From: Candidatus Aenigmatarchaeota archaeon
GTDB taxonomy: Archaea > Aenigmatarchaeota > Aenigmatarchaeia > GW2011-AR5 > JAGGXF01
DNA length: 64,000 nucleotides
Reading direction: 5' to 3'
Assembly: GCA_021163205.1 (NCBI GenBank)
Contig: JAGGXF010000003.1
Span: 1,200 to 65,199 of the forward strand
Positions 8,467 to 19,726 of the stretch are shown here, in pieces. Position 1 is the stretch's first letter. Each line of letters opens with the position of its first letter. The notes under the pieces were generated by a model that saw only the letters and a list, made by a program, of their open reading frames with translations, made no database searches and had not been told where the DNA came from. The position numbers and the translations under genes are program-made.

Positions 8467-8757
8467 TCAAACAGGAAGTCTTGGGTTTTTTCTTGTTCTT
8501 GACTTTCTTGACTTTCCTATTTGCACTATTCCTCTATGACGTGCACAGCTTGGGCAAACATACATCTTTTGGCTGGCCAAACTCAACTGCCTCCGGTCTA
8601 TCTGCTTTCTTATTCCGGGGTCTGTCAACTTAAATCCCTTGAATACGGTAAAACATTTGTACCTAGGAACTTTTTTGCCACAGTAGGCACATGTTACATA
8701 GGACTCACGACCACGTCCCTTGGTATGATGATATGTCCTCTTATATGGCGCTCCCAT
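8467..8757 (-). CDS. rps26e: 30S ribosomal protein eS26
   Basis: 96 aa. KGRGRESYVTCAYCGKKVPRYK...KMYVCPSCARHRGIV matches the eS26 zinc-ribbon pattern (KGRGHV..CxxC..VPKDK...YCVSCAIH). Confidence 0.7.
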   Translation of the reverse strand: MGAPYKRTYHHTKGRGRESYVTCAYCGKKVPRYKCFTVFKGFKLTDPGIRKQIDRRQLSLASQKMYVCPSCARHRGIVQIGKSRKSRTRKNPRLPV

Positions 8758-9076: not shown

Positions 9077-11572
9077 GTGTCGGAGATGGAAATCGGGACA
9101 CATAACAAAGCTTATGAAAATGGACCTAATTTAGATAGTGATTCAACTGAGATCATAAATAAGGTACTTTCTACGAATAAAACCAACCCATTTGAATACA
9201 TCTCTCAATTGAAGAACTATTCTGAATTCTTTGAAAATAAAAACGAAAAAGAGCTCCTTAAAGAAAGATTACCAGAAATTGTTGGTTATAATAATGTATA
9301 TGAAGAAATCACAGACAGAACAACAGCCGCGCTCGCTCTTATAAAAGATGCCATCGCCATCAAAGACTATGACGCGCTGAAGAGCTTCTCTAAGGAATTT
9401 GGGATATCATACGAAAAACTTCTCAAACTGGGGGAGAATATGGATGAGATAGAAAAGACCGTCCGAAGATATATTAGAGGCCTAGTAAAAGAGGAGCTAT
9501 CAGAAGCCAGGGAAAAAGTTAGAAACGAATCAGCGTTGTTGAAAAGGCTCGAAGACCCCGCATATGAAGCAGAGCTTATGAAATATCCGGCCTATCAGTG
9601 GGGTAAACTCTTGAAAGAACTTGAAGATGGGGTAAACAAAGGTTACATAAAGACAGATGATTATGGAAGATACATTCTCGAGCATAATGGAGAGCCGTTC
9701 GCATTGGTTGACCCAGAATACGGTATAATAACAGACAAACCAAATAAAATCTTCGGATGGGACCCAACCTACGACAGACTGGGAAACTATGCAGTTCCCA
9801 CAAAACAGTATCTTATTGATGTTGACAGAGAAGTTGAAATACCAGACTACATTATTGAGGACGTCAAGAAAGATTCTGAGCTAAAAGAAGTGAAAACGAT
9901 AAGAGACCTTCTCAAACTAAGGCCAAAAATTGCAAAGAAATTGGGCATATATGGAGAAAAACACATAGACCCGAAAAAACTAGAAAGCTTCATCTATCTT
10001 TCTGGCAAAAAATCAAGTCTTTGGAAAAAGATAGCATCAGTTCTCATTCCTGCAGCGTTTGTTACTGCAGGTCTTGGCTGTTTGAATGGTCCAAAAGAAA
10101 CAAACCCAACCACAACACCGCAGGTAACTACAGCGCCACCGACTGATACAACACCGCCCACATCAGCAGCGCCAACAACACCAGTGAAAACGCCATCGAC
10201 AACTCCACACGTGACAACAACCGTACCGCCAACAACAACCCCAGCCCCGGACTATGTAGGACCTTATCTGGATGTTTTGGGATTGCCAAGAACACCCGAG
10301 ACAGAAAAAGAAATTAATGAATACTTGATTGAAAAGAATATCAGTCCAGAAGATGTTGGAAAGGTTTTGAAGGAGTTATCAAACTATGGTTTTGTGTCTG
10401 ATAAAGAGGTTCATGATTGGATAACAGACGAGAGACTAACCATACCTGAGATAGCAAATATGTACGAACTAATAGAAGACGGTGCATCCACTGATGTTGC
10501 ACTTTTCTTGGGAGAATATAATGATTGGATAAAGAAGCTGCCGAATTATGAAGAGGTTTTGAAAACATTAAATAACCTCGACCCGAGAGATAAGAAATAT
10601 CTGTTTATACATCCCATGACCGAAGGACGTGTAGAGGCGGCTGATGTCTTCTCGGATTGGTGTAATGGTCAGTATGGTCGGTATGTTACTAATAAAGAAA
10701 ATATAACAGAATTTTCTGCACTTTCAATAATTTATTATTTACCAGCCAGCGAAGGACCAAAGAAAAAAATACTTAGCAGAATGGAAGAAAATTTTAAACA
10801 ATATCCGAAAGATAGACTTGACATGGTGGCAAAAGACCGAAGGGCGTTGTTCTTCCTTTTATACAATATGCACCCTACCCAATTAAATTTTGGATTTGAT
10901 ATAGATAATCAAACAGAAAGTATTATATATCCAGAAACTATCGAAAAAGCCCAGGATGCTGGAAAAATTGTAGATTTGAATCCAGATAATTTAACAGACG
11001 ATGAACTTGGTAGAATTTTCTACTATGTTGCCACAACTGTCAATGGGGGCAGAGAGCTGAGGGGGGATGCAAAAAAACTAGACAAGGCTTTTGATTTGTT
11101 TTTGAAAAGAGAAGAAGATTTTGGAGACTGTCAAGTTGACTCTGCTATATTTTCAAATATTATAAACAATAGCATTCCTTTTGATGGAGAGGGTAATTCA
11201 ATCGCCATAACAACTTTAAATTATGAGAAATTGACTGAAAGATTCGCACCAAGAGATCACGCCTCCCCACTAATTTTAAAAGAGGATAAGAATGGGGACA
11301 TAAATTGTTATGTTCCTTGGTATGATAAGCATAAGAAAAAAATTATTCTTGTTCGTGCAAAATTTTCAGGTTCTTATAGATTTATTTCTCCATATCTACT
11401 TTTAATTGAATATGGAACAGATGAGTATGGAAAGCCTATGCCTATAGTGCATCAATATATAAAAGGGTCTCGAACAGAATTAATAAAACTGCCTGAAGTT
11501 GATATAGATTCGGAGGGACTTGTAAACGAAATCTTTAAGTCAGGCGAAAAATTAATCAGAGCCTGGGATTGA
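9077..11572 (+). CDS. large single-pass membrane protein with Pro/Thr-rich linker; function unknown
   Basis: 831 aa. Has an N-terminal ~315-aa coiled-coil-rich domain and a TM helix (IASVLIPAAFVTAGLGCLNG). A ~60-aa low-complexity T/P linker (TTTPQVTTAPPTDTTPPTSAAPTTPVKTPSTTPHVTTTVPPTTTPAP) follows, then a ~430-aa C-terminal domain. The start may be GTG 9077 or ATG 9086. Confidence 0.6.
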   Translation: MSEMEIGTHNKAYENGPNLDSDSTEIINKVLSTNKTNPFEYISQLKNYSEFFENKNEKELLKERLPEIVGYNNVYEEITDRTTAALALIKDAIAIKDYDALKSFSKEFGISYEKLLKLGENMDEIEKTVRRYIRGLVKEELSEAREKVRNESALLKRLEDPAYEAELMKYPAYQWGKLLKELEDGVNKGYIKTDDYGRYILEHNGEPFALVDPEYGIITDKPNKIFGWDPTYDRLGNYAVPTKQYLIDVDREVEIPDYIIEDVKKDSELKEVKTIRDLLKLRPKIAKKLGIYGEKHIDPKKLESFIYLSGKKSSLWKKIASVLIPAAFVTAGLGCLNGPKETNPTTTPQVTTAPPTDTTPPTSAAPTTPVKTPSTTPHVTTTVPPTTTPAPDYVGPYLDVLGLPRTPETEKEINEYLIEKNISPEDVGKVLKELSNYGFVSDKEVHDWITDERLTIPEIANMYELIEDGASTDVALFLGEYNDWIKKLPNYEEVLKTLNNLDPRDKKYLFIHPMTEGRVEAADVFSDWCNGQYGRYVTNKENITEFSALSIIYYLPASEGPKKKILSRMEENFKQYPKDRLDMVAKDRRALFFLLYNMHPTQLNFGFDIDNQTESIIYPETIEKAQDAGKIVDLNPDNLTDDELGRIFYYVATTVNGGRELRGDAKKLDKAFDLFLKREEDFGDCQVDSAIFSNIINNSIPFDGEGNSIAITTLNYEKLTERFAPRDHASPLILKEDKNGDINCYVPWYDKHKKKIILVRAKFSGSYRFISPYLLLIEYGTDEYGKPMPIVHQYIKGSRTELIKLPEVDIDSEGLVNEIFKSGEKLIRAWD

Positions 11573-11603
11573 AAATTAACTGATTTCTATTAAACCAGAA
11601 GAC

Positions 11604-11648
11604 TCTTTTTGGGCGCTTTAAATAAAGCTGAAGCCTCTCGGCCGAGAG
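11604..11648 (+). terminator. oligo-T run followed by 14-nt perfect palindrome downstream of the 831-aa gene
   Basis: TTTTT at 11604-11608. CTCTCGGCCGAGAG at 11635-11648 is a perfect inverted repeat. Both lie 30-75 nt after the stop at 11572. Confidence 0.3.
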
Positions 11649-11736
11649 ATAATAGAGTAAAAACTGGCGCTGTCAGACAATAAAAAGATTATGCGCCTAT
11701 GCGCGACCGAAAGCTGAGCCTCCGGTACTTGTTTTA

Positions 11737-11764
11737 TATCAGCACTAGTTGGCTTTTGAAGAAT
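11737..11764. repeat. 28-bp direct repeat, copy 1 (TATCAGCACTAGTTGGCTTTTGAAGAAT)
   Basis: Identical 28-mer recurs at 14166-14193. The two copies bracket a three-gene cassette. Confidence 0.9.
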
Positions 11765-11916
11765 CCCCTTTAATATTGAATAGAATTGACTCGTTCCGTC
11801 ATTTTCTTAATAGAAAGAAAAAATAAAGGTCAAAAAACAAGTAAAGTAGAAGTCTTGGCTTTCGGCTCTTTCTTGATATTTTCAAGGTTGCTCATAAAGT
11901 TGTTAGAAACCGCCTA

Positions 11917-12306
11917 TCAAATAGTAGGTCCTGGACCAATATCTATGCAGCGACAGCAATAATCTTCTCCTGGCAAGTCTGGGTCGCAATCCTCTTCATA
12001 CCCAATACACTTGAGCGTGCCAACACTTCTACATGATGTCGAATCATCTACACACAAATAACCTGTGTTGCATTTAGTAACACCCTGGCTTTGCTCTTGC
12101 TCGGCTTTCACAACCTCTATGTCTTGCCAATCGGTCTCCCCGGCAGAATAATAACAGCACTGGTCGGGCTTAGAAGAACCATAAGAACTTCTTACGGATT
12201 CTGGGTCGTATGGCGGCGTCAACGACGCCAAATAAAAGAAGTAAGGCACGCAGCCGCACTCGCTGTAGCATTTCTGGCCTTCAGGACATGTGTCGTCATA
12301 CTTCAC
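11917..12306 (-). CDS. Cys-rich hypothetical protein (15 Cys in 129 aa), GC-rich relative to surroundings
   Basis: ORF MKYDDTCPEGQKCYSECGCVPYFFY...DYCCRCIDIGPGPTI has CC and CxC motifs throughout. Local GC content is visibly higher than the flanks. No signal peptide is evident. The coding status is uncertain. Confidence 0.4.
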   Translation of the reverse strand: MKYDDTCPEGQKCYSECGCVPYFFYLASLTPPYDPESVRSSYGSSKPDQCCYYSAGETDWQDIEVVKAEQEQSQGVTKCNTGYLCVDDSTSCRSVGTLKCIGYEEDCDPDLPGEDYCCRCIDIGPGPTI

Positions 12307-12378
12307 GATCCAATACTTAAGAGCAAGTTCTTTCTATTATTTAAGATAATTTTTAATACATAGAAATTAATTTATTTC

Positions 12379-13080
12379 ATGCTCTCCGTGATTCTGCCAG
12401 TTCACAACGAAGAAGAAAATCTTAAGCGGAATTTCTATAAAATTTATAAAAGTTTTGTTGGTCTTGGCGAAAAATTCGAAATCATAATTGCTGAGGACGG
12501 CTCTACTGACAACAGCCCAAAAATCTGCGAAAAATTTAAAAAGGAATTCAAAAATGTAAGGCACATTCACAGCAATACTAAACTGGGCAAAGGAAAGGCT
12601 CTTACTAATGCCATTCTAAAATCAAAAGGAAACAAGATCTGCTTTATGGACATAGACCTTTCGGCAGATCTTAGACACATTAAAAAAATAATAAAATGCC
12701 TGGAAACAAATGATATTTGCATCGGTTCTAGATATTCGAGAAGGAGCAAAAGATTTGGCAGTATGAAAAGGCTCTTGTTAAGCAGAGTATACAACTTTCT
12801 GGTAAGGATGGTTCTTGGCTCCAAAATCAGTGACCATCAGTGCGGTTTCAAGGCTTTTCGCAAAAAAAGTGTTCTGCCGATTTTGAAAAGGATGAAAAGC
12901 AAAAGCTTTTTCTGGGACACGGAAATGCTTGTTCTGGCGCAAAGAGCGCGCCTGAAGATAAAAGAAATTCCTGTTGTCTGGAGGGAGGGAAAAGACACGC
13001 GAGTAGATGTCATCAAGGACAGCATCTCAATGTTCTATGGAATAATAGAACTGAGAAAAAGATTGTCTAAAGGGTTGTAA
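12379..13080 (+). CDS. family 2 glycosyltransferase (dolichyl-phosphate sugar synthase-like)
   Basis: 233 aa. MLSVILPVHNEEENL...IIAEDGSTDNS...MDIDLSAD carries the GT2 DxD/ED signature of the DPM1-like architecture. Confidence 0.8.
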   Translation: MLSVILPVHNEEENLKRNFYKIYKSFVGLGEKFEIIIAEDGSTDNSPKICEKFKKEFKNVRHIHSNTKLGKGKALTNAILKSKGNKICFMDIDLSADLRHIKKIIKCLETNDICIGSRYSRRSKRFGSMKRLLLSRVYNFLVRMVLGSKISDHQCGFKAFRKKSVLPILKRMKSKSFFWDTEMLVLAQRARLKIKEIPVVWREGKDTRVDVIKDSISMFYGIIELRKRLSKGL

Positions 13081-14107
13081 TAAAATTCTTGAAAAAGGTC
13101 AGCGCTGTTTCAAAAACTCGCGGGCCGAACATGTTTTGCGTGCAATAATAACAGCTGAAAACGCATCCCTCGCATTTGTGCGCGAGCCTTTTCCTTTTTT
13201 CATGGAACTCCTTGCTACCATACCATTCCAAAAAATCCTTGTCAAGAATATTTTTTTCCATAGAAAAATCCTGGCATATATAAAATTCTCCGTCAGGCAT
13301 TATATCGAAAAAAACCAAACCGGCCTTGCAGTTCCACTTGTTCTTCTGGCTTATGAGATATTTCTCAGACAAACGCAGATAATAAGGCGGGGTCATCATG
13401 CCAGAAGAGAAGTATTGTCTTTTCAACAGCGAATATGTTTTTTTGACATCTTCAGAGTTCAGGTAACCATCACCTCTTGGCCTGAATCCATAATCGTCAG
13501 AATAGTGAGAATACATCACAGGTGACAAAAAGATATTAACACCAAGTGACTTGGCGAAGCTGACTATTTCAGGCAACTCTTTTATGTTTTTTTCTGTGAC
13601 CATCGTACTTATGTTAATGTTCTGTCCTTTTGCCTTATTTTTGGCGAGAAATTTAAGATTTTTCATGACCGTATCAAAATGTCCCCGTTGTGCATTATGA
13701 ACCTCTCTTTTTAGCGAATCCAATGATATTGATATTAAGTTTATTTTCGTGTCCAGCAGCCTTTTGTACATATGCTGAGGCATAGTGCCGTTGCTTGTTA
13801 TTTGTGTCCAAAAGCCTCTTTTGTTTGCATATTCTATGAGGTCAAAAATATCTGGGTTCAACAGGGGTTCGCCACCTGTAAAAGATATCTGGACAACGCC
13901 CATTCTATCCAGTATGTCGATAATCCTGATGAAACCTTCCTTGGATAATTCTTTGGGTATGACTTTTTCTCTAACACCACAATACTTGCACCTCAGATTG
14001 CATCTTTTGGTGACATGCAAATGCGCAAAAAAAGGTTTGTTTCGTAAAAAAAAGTTTCTGCTAGTCCTTAGCAATATCTTTGCAGTTTTAGCTGAAAAAT
14101 CAAACAA
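13067..14107 (-). CDS. radical SAM enzyme with C-terminal SPASM domain
   Basis: 346 aa. HVTKRCNLRCKYCGV (CxxxCxxC). The C-terminus CKAGLVFFDIMPDGEFYICQD...CEGCVFSCYYCTQ has SPASM-type auxiliary-cluster cysteines. Overlaps the GT2 gene end by 14 nt (convergent). Confidence 0.75.
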   Translation of the reverse strand: MFDFSAKTAKILLRTSRNFFLRNKPFFAHLHVTKRCNLRCKYCGVREKVIPKELSKEGFIRIIDILDRMGVVQISFTGGEPLLNPDIFDLIEYANKRGFWTQITSNGTMPQHMYKRLLDTKINLISISLDSLKREVHNAQRGHFDTVMKNLKFLAKNKAKGQNINISTMVTEKNIKELPEIVSFAKSLGVNIFLSPVMYSHYSDDYGFRPRGDGYLNSEDVKKTYSLLKRQYFSSGMMTPPYYLRLSEKYLISQKNKWNCKAGLVFFDIMPDGEFYICQDFSMEKNILDKDFLEWYGSKEFHEKRKRLAHKCEGCVFSCYYCTQNMFGPRVFETALTFFKNFITTL

Positions 14108-14165
14108 AAAATCACCTGTAATTATTATCTATAATTAAGCTAGATAATTAAAATCTTTGCCACAC

Positions 14166-14193
14166 TATCAGCACTAGTTGGCTTTTGAAGAAT
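14166..14193. repeat. 28-bp direct repeat, copy 2 (TATCAGCACTAGTTGGCTTTTGAAGAAT)
   Basis: Perfect match to 11737-11764. Lies 59 nt upstream of the radical SAM/SPASM gene start. Confidence 0.9.
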
Positions 14194-14339
14194 AAATATA
14201 ATCAGCAAAGAAATAGCTTTTATAAACTTGATGAAAATATTAATTATTGATATGCCTGACATTGCTTCACTCTATGAGTGAGCAACGCTGGGCTAATTTT
14301 TCGTTCAAAACTTACTCCCTATAGTGATTGTTTATTTTA

Positions 14340-19632: not shown

Positions 19633-19726
19633 GGGTCTGTAGTCTAGCTAATGCGCAAGCATCTAGAATGGTCTAGGATCGGGCCTTCGGGAGGCTCAGA
19701 CAGGAGTTCAAATCTCCTCAGACCCA
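19633..19726 (+). tRNA. tRNA-Pro(CGG) with putative 20-nt non-canonical intron in the D-loop (19649-19668)
   Basis: Acceptor GGGTCTG/CAGACCC. T-arm AGGAG-TTCAAAT-CTCCT. Anticodon stem-loop GGGCC-TTCGGGA-GGCTC (anticodon CGG, U33, G37). The D-region is 20 nt too long: AGC[TAATGCGCAAGCATCTAGAA]TGGTCTA. Confidence 0.7.

Follow-up and report, generated by a model that had tools for sequence, protein, structure and literature searches.

A cysteine-rich open reading frame on a strain-variable segment of an Aenigmarchaeota genome and its probable relationship to repeats of an archaeal surface protein

Does the small cysteine-rich ORF located beside an rSAM gene and a GT2 gene in a 64,000-nucleotide stretch of a Candidatus Aenigmatarchaeota genome (contig JAGGXF010000003.1; hereafter, the window) encode a protein and, if so, is this protein the substrate of its neighbors? 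A preliminary description of the locus had proposed that the product was the foremost candidate for a substrate of the rSAM/SPASM and GT2 enzymes or, alternatively, that the frame was a fortuitous one within a non-coding GC-rich element. The present analysis leads us to favor, with some reserve, another answer: the ORF would be a genuine protein-coding accessory orphan gene, carried by a dispensable and strain-variable cassette of 583 bp, that includes a stand-alone copy of an eight-cysteine module and evolves under relaxed selection.

The ORF is located on the minus strand at positions 11917 to 12306, as previously described, and comprises 129 codons from a GTG start to a TGA stop that is followed by a TAG. 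The first upstream in-frame stop (TAG) lies 9 codons before the GTG, which gives an open stretch of 138 codons. NCBI annotates the product as a hypothetical protein of a Candidatus Aenigmarchaeota MAG (MCD6557433.1, locus tag J7K31_00155). This product contains 14 Cys (positions 7, 13, 17, 19, 50, 51, 79, 85, 92, 100, 107, 117, 118 and 120), and not 15 as initially counted; the CC and CxC motifs that had been pointed out are present, together with a CCxC motif. Cys and aromatic residues (11 Tyr, 2 Phe and 1 Trp) each represent 10.9% of the protein, which is devoid of His and acidic (pI 4.05; 23 Asp+Glu versus 9 Lys+Arg). The absence of a signal peptide was corroborated: the N-terminus is not hydrophobic (residues 1 to 20, MKYDDTCPEGQKCYSECGCV; maximal 15-residue Kyte-Doolittle average of 1.1) and, since only 72 bp separate the start codon from the divergent GT2 gene, which begins at 12379, a longer N-terminus or a hidden signal peptide is impossible. 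Both the length of the frame and its Cys content are more than chance. Frames of at least 138 codons were obtained in 0.7% of the shuffles of the 806-bp inter-gene region, and translations of the shuffled ORF contain 3.6 ± 1.8 Cys and never more than 11 (3000 shuffles) versus the 14 observed. Two features, the GTG start and the lack of a Shine-Dalgarno sequence, do not favor efficient translation. On the opposite strand, an antisense ORF of 90 aa (12091 to 12363, plus strand) forms an Arg/Leu-rich shadow frame that is also open, with 6 amino-acid changes, in the related contig L054.

The locus had been described as GC-rich within a genome of about 35% GC. This holds for the ORF itself (47.7% GC, among the top 0.6% of 390-bp segments) but not for the background, since the window has a GC content of 38.4%. 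With the codon usage of the window, the amino-acid sequence of the product would be expected to give 45.2% GC. About two thirds of the excess thus result from the amino-acid composition, because the protein is rich in Cys, Gly, Pro, Asp and Ser and poor in Lys, Ile and Asn. The residual excess is found at third positions (GC3 of 46.1% versus 36.7% expected, P ~0.02), within the range of the other genes of the window (maximum 47%). Among the two causes that had been put forward, composition therefore forces most of the excess, whereas foreign origin is reduced to a possibility: a strain-variable segment with a mildly raised GC3 fits an accessory segment that was possibly acquired.

What kind of protein does the ORF encode? 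Searches against Pfam, NCBIfam, PHROGs, PADLOC and PDB sequences gave no match. A word-indexed protein search retrieved only the ORF itself, on the JGI contig L001 that carries 100% identical DNA, and only two sequence versions of the product were found among about 15 billion proteins. An exhaustive HMMER search with the product against 1.84 billion representatives identified three other proteins (P0002, P0003 and P0004). P0002, a protein with Big_3 repeats, was rejected: its three matches of ~14 bits cover residues 25-82 only and are inflated by repetition, and the ORF product has no Pfam match to Big_3 (PF07523, a domain of ~68 residues) at E ≤ 0.1. P0004, a protein with Sushi repeats, was also rejected as a homologue, its weak matches of ~14 bits being summed and either inflated by repeats or compositional. 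P0003 was found at E = 6e-6 through three repeats. Its gene call is truncated; the full ORF on contig L003 (JGI 3300014913, positions 226-2871) encodes 881 aa including 116 Cys, with a signal peptide (MRNLKIEIVFLFIILFSSIFLSRIVSAG) and a C-terminal end composed of LPEF, a TM segment and an RRKF tail, which shows a weak similarity to the PEF-CTERM sorting signal of archaea. The presence of both a signal peptide and an anchor-like tail indicates that the repeats of P0003 are extracellular. A CV[DH]DSTSC motif recurs in the N-terminal repeats of this protein.

The region of the ORF product that matches the three diverged repeats of P0003 is the eight-cysteine module (residues 76-121, VTKCNTGYLCVDDSTSCRSVGTLKCIGYEEDCDPDLPGEDYCCRCI; 11944 to 12081, minus strand). 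Its pattern, to which the ORF conforms, is C-x2-GY-x-C-x6-C-x(7-8)-GY-x3-C-x5-G-x-[DE]-YCC-[KR]-C. The module and the repeats have in common eight Cys each, two GY pairs and the G-x-[DE]-YCC-[KR]-C ending, and they exhibit 29-41% identity. Their alignment (A2, four rows) includes 13 invariant columns, seven of which are Cys, the eighth Cys (C100 in the ORF product) being shifted in each copy and unaligned. The comparison of the ORF product with P0003 reaches 31.3 bits versus at most 6.5 bits in 400 composition-preserving shuffles and at most 7.9 bits when the positions of the Cys are kept fixed; the best single repeat scores 32.8 bits, which alone corresponds to E ~0.007 at the size of the library. 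On the basis of these comparisons, the homology of the module with the repeats of P0003 is probable, not certain, and the family would include only these two members. If so, the ORF is not the fortuitous non-coding frame that had been considered, since its 46 C-terminal residues are homologous to a protein module.

The module gave no match in Pfam, in NCBIfam, among PDB sequences or at the level of folds. None of the sequences of a word-indexed database (5.8 billion sequences) passed with the four-row profile, which is too short for a database of this size. A scan of metagenome and viral contigs with the pattern retrieved the contig of P0003 itself as the sole true relative. Matches from human gut and viruses were rejected because they have only the 12-residue G-x-x-YCC-x-C pattern in common with the module, and L044 was rejected because the match is a spurious frame within a bacterial secY gene. 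The literature that associates Aenigmarchaeota or DPANN with Cys-rich or PEF-CTERM proteins yielded nothing relevant. The module is thus undescribed and absent from Pfam and NCBIfam, and belongs to the broad class of small Cys-rich domains. When modeled by AlphaFold2 from the four-row alignment, it gave a best model with a pLDDT of 86 and three beta strands, the four other models having values of 43-69.

The N-terminal half (residues 1-75; 12082 to 12306, minus strand) harbors the six other Cys (C-x5-C-x3-C-x-C … CC) and an acidic Gln/Glu-rich linker. It is not a second copy of the module, since the module HMM does not match it, and the exhaustive HMMER search gave no trustworthy homologue for these 75 residues. 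The AlphaFold2 model of the full-length protein has a mean pLDDT of 45, with values below 50 in this half. Because its N-terminal part has neither homologue nor predicted fold, the whole protein may not be one folded functional unit. Compared with the PEF-CTERM-type anchored surface protein P0003 and its tandem Cys-rich repeats, the ORF product has the same module and the same logic of Cys spacing, but it carries a single module instead of tandem ones, is devoid of signal peptide and anchor, has an unrelated N-terminal half and is encoded by a different and less AT-rich genome.

The ORF is carried by a cassette of 583 bp (11763 to 12345; GC 42.4%) that consists of 39 bp upstream, the ORF and 154 bp downstream. 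Two putative signals can be read from its sequence on the minus strand: (i) a TATA-like box (CTTAAATAATAG, 12334 to 12345), located inside the cassette 28-39 nt upstream of the GTG and recognized from the usual geometry of archaeal promoters, and (ii) a T-rich tract (TTGTTTTTTGACCTTTATTTTTTCTTTC, 11813 to 11839), located ~80-105 nt past the stop codon, which is a plausible archaeal oligo-T terminator. The cassette looks like a self-contained transcription unit that would most likely produce a monocistronic mRNA, leaderless or with a very short leader according to the placement of the TATA-like box. It also includes a perfect 12-bp inverted repeat (TAATAGAAAGAA / TTCTTTCTATTA), whose arms (11808 to 11819 and 12328 to 12339) bracket the ORF. 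Whether the cassette was inserted in some strains or deleted from others is not separable without an outgroup, and the mildly raised GC3 leans to acquisition.

The distribution of the cassette was examined in contigs found through the members of the 90% clusters of GT2 and rSAM. Three contigs (L046, L056 and L057) were left out since they end before the site of the ORF. The cassette is present in the window, in L001 and in L054 and absent from L055, L058 and L059, where the alignment shows about 30 unrelated bp in its place. In these three contigs, the distance between GT2 and the next gene is 270 bp versus 806 bp in the window, and tblastn of the ORF against their loci gave no match. They belong to a sister clade, their rSAM genes having 87-90% nucleotide identity with that of the window, and they keep rSAM and GT2 although they lack the ORF. 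The rSAM cluster also includes Aenigmarchaeota archaeon ex4484_14. Hydrothermal sediments of the Guaymas Basin are the subject of a paper (PMC5569505) that made use of the ex4484 genome series.

L054 has ~97% identity with the window across the ORF, where 12 substitutions (four synonymous and eight non-synonymous) were found. Codons 70 (CAA) and 74 (CAG), both in the linker (12085 to 12099, minus strand), are replaced by TAA and TAG, and Gly113, invariant in the module, is changed to Glu; all 14 Cys are kept in both alleles. The density of substitutions between the window and L054 is 3.1% in the ORF and 3.5% in the adjacent non-coding DNA; no indel occurs in the ORF, compared to 47 and 3 indel columns in the two flanks. 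The dS value (0.059) is the same for the ORF and GT2, and dN/dS reaches 0.42 for the ORF versus 0.15 for GT2 and 0.12 for rSAM; this value of 0.42, obtained from 12 substitutions, is statistically compatible with neutrality as well as with moderate constraint. It should be emphasized that L054 looks like a mosaic: its rSAM gene becomes identical to that of the other clade in the 3′ part, so that this contig may result from recombination or from a chimeric assembly. The part with the cassette is itself found in one clade only.

Overall, six independent contigs span the site, and in four of them the ORF is missing or inactivated. Since the sister strains lack the gene and a close strain carries it inactivated by two nonsense codons, it is dispensable and selection on it is relaxed, and its broken frame in L054 shows that it is decaying in at least one strain. 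The preliminary description had made the coding nature of the ORF depend on the preservation of its frame among relatives. The outcome is mixed: the frame is broken in L054, but the homology of the module indicates a coding ancestry. According to the explanation that we favor, the protein, if made, would stay in the cytoplasm or leave the cell by a non-classical route, its module would form a small knot rich in beta structure, stabilized either by four disulfides or by bound metal, and it would act as a binding module rather than as an enzyme. As a strain-specific orphan, the gene itself is nothing out of the ordinary. It resembles other strain-specific ORFans and remnants found in intergenic indels by its presence or absence between strains of ~90% identity, its nonsense alleles, its raised dN/dS, its slightly atypical GC3 and its almost complete lack of homologues. 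However, it differs from them in that part of its product has homology at the level of a domain and is therefore not a de novo ORF.

An unlikely but serious alternative is that the ORF was dead on arrival, i.e., that it is a scrap of a larger gene encoding a Cys-rich surface protein, which either reached this intergenic region from elsewhere or stayed behind there. Deprived of signal peptide and anchor, this scrap would never have had a function in this genome and would still be open in the window only for lack of time. The absence of a signal peptide from the ORF product while the only homologous module is extracellular would fit such a fragment, as would the orphan N-terminal half with its low pLDDT, the two stops of L054, a substitution density equal to that of the adjacent non-coding DNA, the lack of the cassette in the sister clade and the existence of only two sequence versions among all the proteins searched. 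However, the window copy keeps all the invariant residues of the module, the 14 Cys are retained in both strains, indels are restricted to the flanks and a frame of this length is improbable by chance. Furthermore, the cassette starts just upstream of the TATA-like box and of the start codon, a rather neat arrangement for a random scrap.

We consider as rather improbable that the ORF encodes a functional accessory protein under selection wherever it is kept, L054 being in this case a loss-of-function variant. Such a protein could be a cytoplasmic binder of a hydrothermal-sediment archaeon, stabilized by disulfides or metal, or a DPANN-host factor exported by a non-classical route. Cytoplasmic disulfides are known in some thermophilic archaea, and the even number of Cys (six in the N-terminal half and eight in the module) is compatible with full disulfide pairing. 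The conservation of the module residues relative to a distant homologue, the confident best AlphaFold2 model of the module, the promoter-like and terminator-like sequences of the cassette and the origin of relatives from Guaymas Basin hydrothermal sediments also argue for a function. Moreover, two records that were assembled independently, an NCBI MAG and a JGI contig, carry an intact ORF; however, these are 100% identical in DNA and therefore count as one observation. Against such a function stand the loss or inactivation of the gene in most of the contigs that span the site, a dN/dS about three times that of the neighboring genes and the absence of orthologues elsewhere. Metallothioneins have in common with the ORF product CC, CxC and CxxxC motifs, the absence of His and a small size. 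However, they have a very high Cys content, compared to only 10.9% here along with as many aromatic residues, and the homologous module of the ORF occurs in a secreted protein. Classical metallothioneins are largely devoid of aromatic residues. No metallothionein model from Pfam or NCBIfam matched the product.

It is also very unlikely that the locus is a non-coding GC-rich element, either a structured RNA or a MITE-like insertion, in which the ORF is fortuitous. The broken frame of L054, the perfect inverted repeat around the ORF and the presence/absence polymorphism of the segment would be expected from such an element, but the protein-level homology is far above that of composition-matched shuffles. 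No Rfam family matched at gathering or relaxed thresholds, and the region downstream of the ORF is not unusually structured in comparison with shuffles (z = -1.3). MITE-like elements have terminal inverted repeats, a target-site duplication and many copies, whereas nothing of this kind was seen for the cassette: the arms of its repeat do not coincide with the exact ends of the indel but are located 6 bp and about 45 bp inward of them, no target-site duplication was found at the cassette, and neither the window nor any of the loci examined contains a second copy of the segment. The significance of the inverted repeat is itself uncertain, since finding one such 12-bp repeat among 800 AT-rich bases is only slightly surprising.

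The neighborhood that had designated the ORF as the prime candidate for a substrate of the rSAM and GT2 enzymes is less suggestive than it seems. The strands of the three genes alternate: the ORF (minus) and GT2 (plus; MCD6557434.1) are divergent, and GT2 and rSAM (minus) are convergent with an overlap of 14 bp. Therefore, they do not form an operon. The rSAM protein matches only Radical_SAM and Fer4_12 in Pfam and has no match to the Pfam SPASM and RRE models; only inspection by eye reveals a SPASM-like Cys pattern at its C-terminus (C-x12-G-x4-C … CxxCxxxCxxC). Both rSAM and GT2 are far below all the cut-offs of the named maturase families of NCBIfam; the best scores of rSAM are for NirJ2 (100 bits for a cut-off of 500), StsB (99 for 625) and the mycofactocin rSAM (88 for 265), and it has other sub-threshold similarities to MoaA, to the PTO1314 family and to sactipeptide and ranthipeptide maturases. 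A search of the rSAM protein against the contigs of GTDB species representatives gave no close relative. Its homologues (38-45% identity) are found amid genes encoding DedA/VTT proteins, GT2/GT9, methyltransferases, CDP-alcohol phosphatidyltransferases and nucleotidyltransferases, with one distant locus organized as GT2-rSAM-GT2, and no Cys-rich ORF comparable to that of the window was found near them. Since these contexts are related to lipids and sugars, rSAM and GT2, which constitute a conserved pair of their own, more likely act on a sugar or a lipid.

Known rSAM/SPASM RiPP systems (sactipeptides, ranthipeptides/SCIFF, and mycofactocin, in which MftA is associated with MftC and the GT2 MftF) do resemble this locus in that a small Cys-rich ORF lies close to a SPASM-like rSAM and a GT2. 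However, RiPP precursors are co-oriented and co-occur with their maturase and are typically under 100 aa, all of which differ from the ORF, whose 129-aa product is domain-like, and RiPP maturases belong to recognized families with SPASM and RRE. The pair is intact in the three sister contigs that lack the ORF, and L054 keeps both enzymes intact beside an ORF interrupted by two stop codons. Consequently, the ORF is not supported as a substrate and, devoid of functional tie to rSAM and GT2, is not a RiPP precursor. Although the Cys-rich product is encoded within 1 kb of an rSAM with a SPASM-like Cys pattern, sub-threshold similarity to maturases and a GT2 neighbor, the proposal that it is a large RiPP-like precursor cross-linked by rSAM/SPASM and glycosylated by GT2 is largely refuted by the alternating strands, the persistence of the enzyme pair where the ORF is absent or nonsense, the remote and NirJ2-like affinities of the rSAM, the lack of a comparable ORF near its homologues and the homology of the product to a folded domain rather than to a leader-plus-core peptide, and we regard it as extremely improbable.

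This work has no bearing on any long-standing open question, but it removes a tempting wrong annotation, that of a Cys-rich RiPP precursor encoded next to an rSAM gene, and illustrates that gene proximity alone is misleading in the compact genomes of DPANN. It also provides a small and clean example of accessory-gene turnover in a population of uncultured archaea, where the alleles at a single site are intact, nonsense or absent. Finally, it documents an undescribed eight-cysteine module that the product of an Aenigmarchaeota orphan gene has in common with a surface protein secreted by an archaeon. More speculatively, and with a low probability for the whole of this proposal, the module may define a new family of disulfide-rich folds on the surfaces of DPANN and other archaea, of which the ORF product would be a functional soluble form, kept as a strain-level polymorphism, that is, a cytoplasmic binder stabilized by disulfides or metal in a thermophile, a host-interaction factor released by a non-classical route or, for a smaller share, an unusually large substrate of rSAM/GT2.

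The interval between the RtcB and rSAM genes carries a second presence/absence polymorphism, at the AbiEii site, less than 3 kb from the first one, the ORF cassette. In the sister clade, this interval is occupied by an AbiEii toxin gene and, upstream of it, a gene of about 205 codons that probably encodes the AbiEi antitoxin (L046:8307-9841, L055:4307-5841 and L057:1023-2536), while the same interval in the window (14108-14339) and in the related contig L056 is only a 232-bp gap. The rSAM gene of L054, the contig of a strain about 97% identical to that of the window, is itself a mosaic (L054:1543-2583) when set against its counterpart at 13067-14107: its first ~600 nt share 94-100% identity with the window, whereas over the final ~250 nt it matches the sister clade (contig L058) at 100% identity and the window at just 79-83%. 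L054 also has a GT2 gene (237 aa) whose 3′ end is of the sister-clade type. Either strains have recombined here, or MEGAHIT assembled a chimeric contig.

Concerning P0003, whose repeats match the eight-cysteine module of the ORF, the public gene call (697 aa) begins at an internal methionine. The full ORF (L003:226-2871) encodes an 881-aa protein that carries a signal peptide, 116 cysteines (13%), several kinds of cysteine-rich repeats and a PEF-CTERM-like tail; it matched no Pfam family. A 12-residue motif containing G-[DE]-[DE]-YCC-[KR]-C is also highly conserved in a protein found in many human-gut metagenome and phage contigs (L005-L043 and L060-L094). However, homology of this protein to the module is unlikely, since this short pattern is all that they have in common.

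The convergent neighbour of the ORF (9077-11572) encodes an 831-aa protein that has its N-terminal region in the cytoplasm, crosses the membrane through one transmembrane segment and continues via a Pro/Thr-rich linker into an outer region of about 430 aa. It belongs to no Pfam family and no identical sequence was found in the protein collection; it is kept in the sister clade. Downstream of this gene lies an intergenic stretch of ~190 bp (11573-11762) that is about 85-97% conserved between clades, the dS of the neighbouring genes being 0.33-0.40. Within it, CTCTCGG/CCGAGAG forms a perfect palindrome and GGCGC...GCGCC a stem; the Rfam search of this stretch gave no match and its folding z-score was not significant. 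The stretch may serve as a 3′ UTR or terminator, or else encode a small RNA. Elsewhere in this DPANN genome, a ribosomal protein S26e homologue that narrowly passes the Pfam cut-off (27.8 bits for a threshold of 27) is encoded at 8467-8757. Directly after a Hel308-like helicase gene, Rfam detects a 94-nt tRNA (19633-19726, 44 bits), probably an intron-containing archaeal tRNA; ARAGORN reported zero tRNAs across the whole window.

The rSAM family, represented in the window beside GT2 (12379-13080), recurs in distant bacteria and archaea (L048, L050, L053). Its recurrent neighbours there, namely DedA/VTT, GT2/GT9, methyltransferase, CDP-alcohol phosphatidyltransferase and nucleotidyltransferase genes, suggest that the rSAM and GT genes form an uncharacterised lipid- or sugar-modifying pair.
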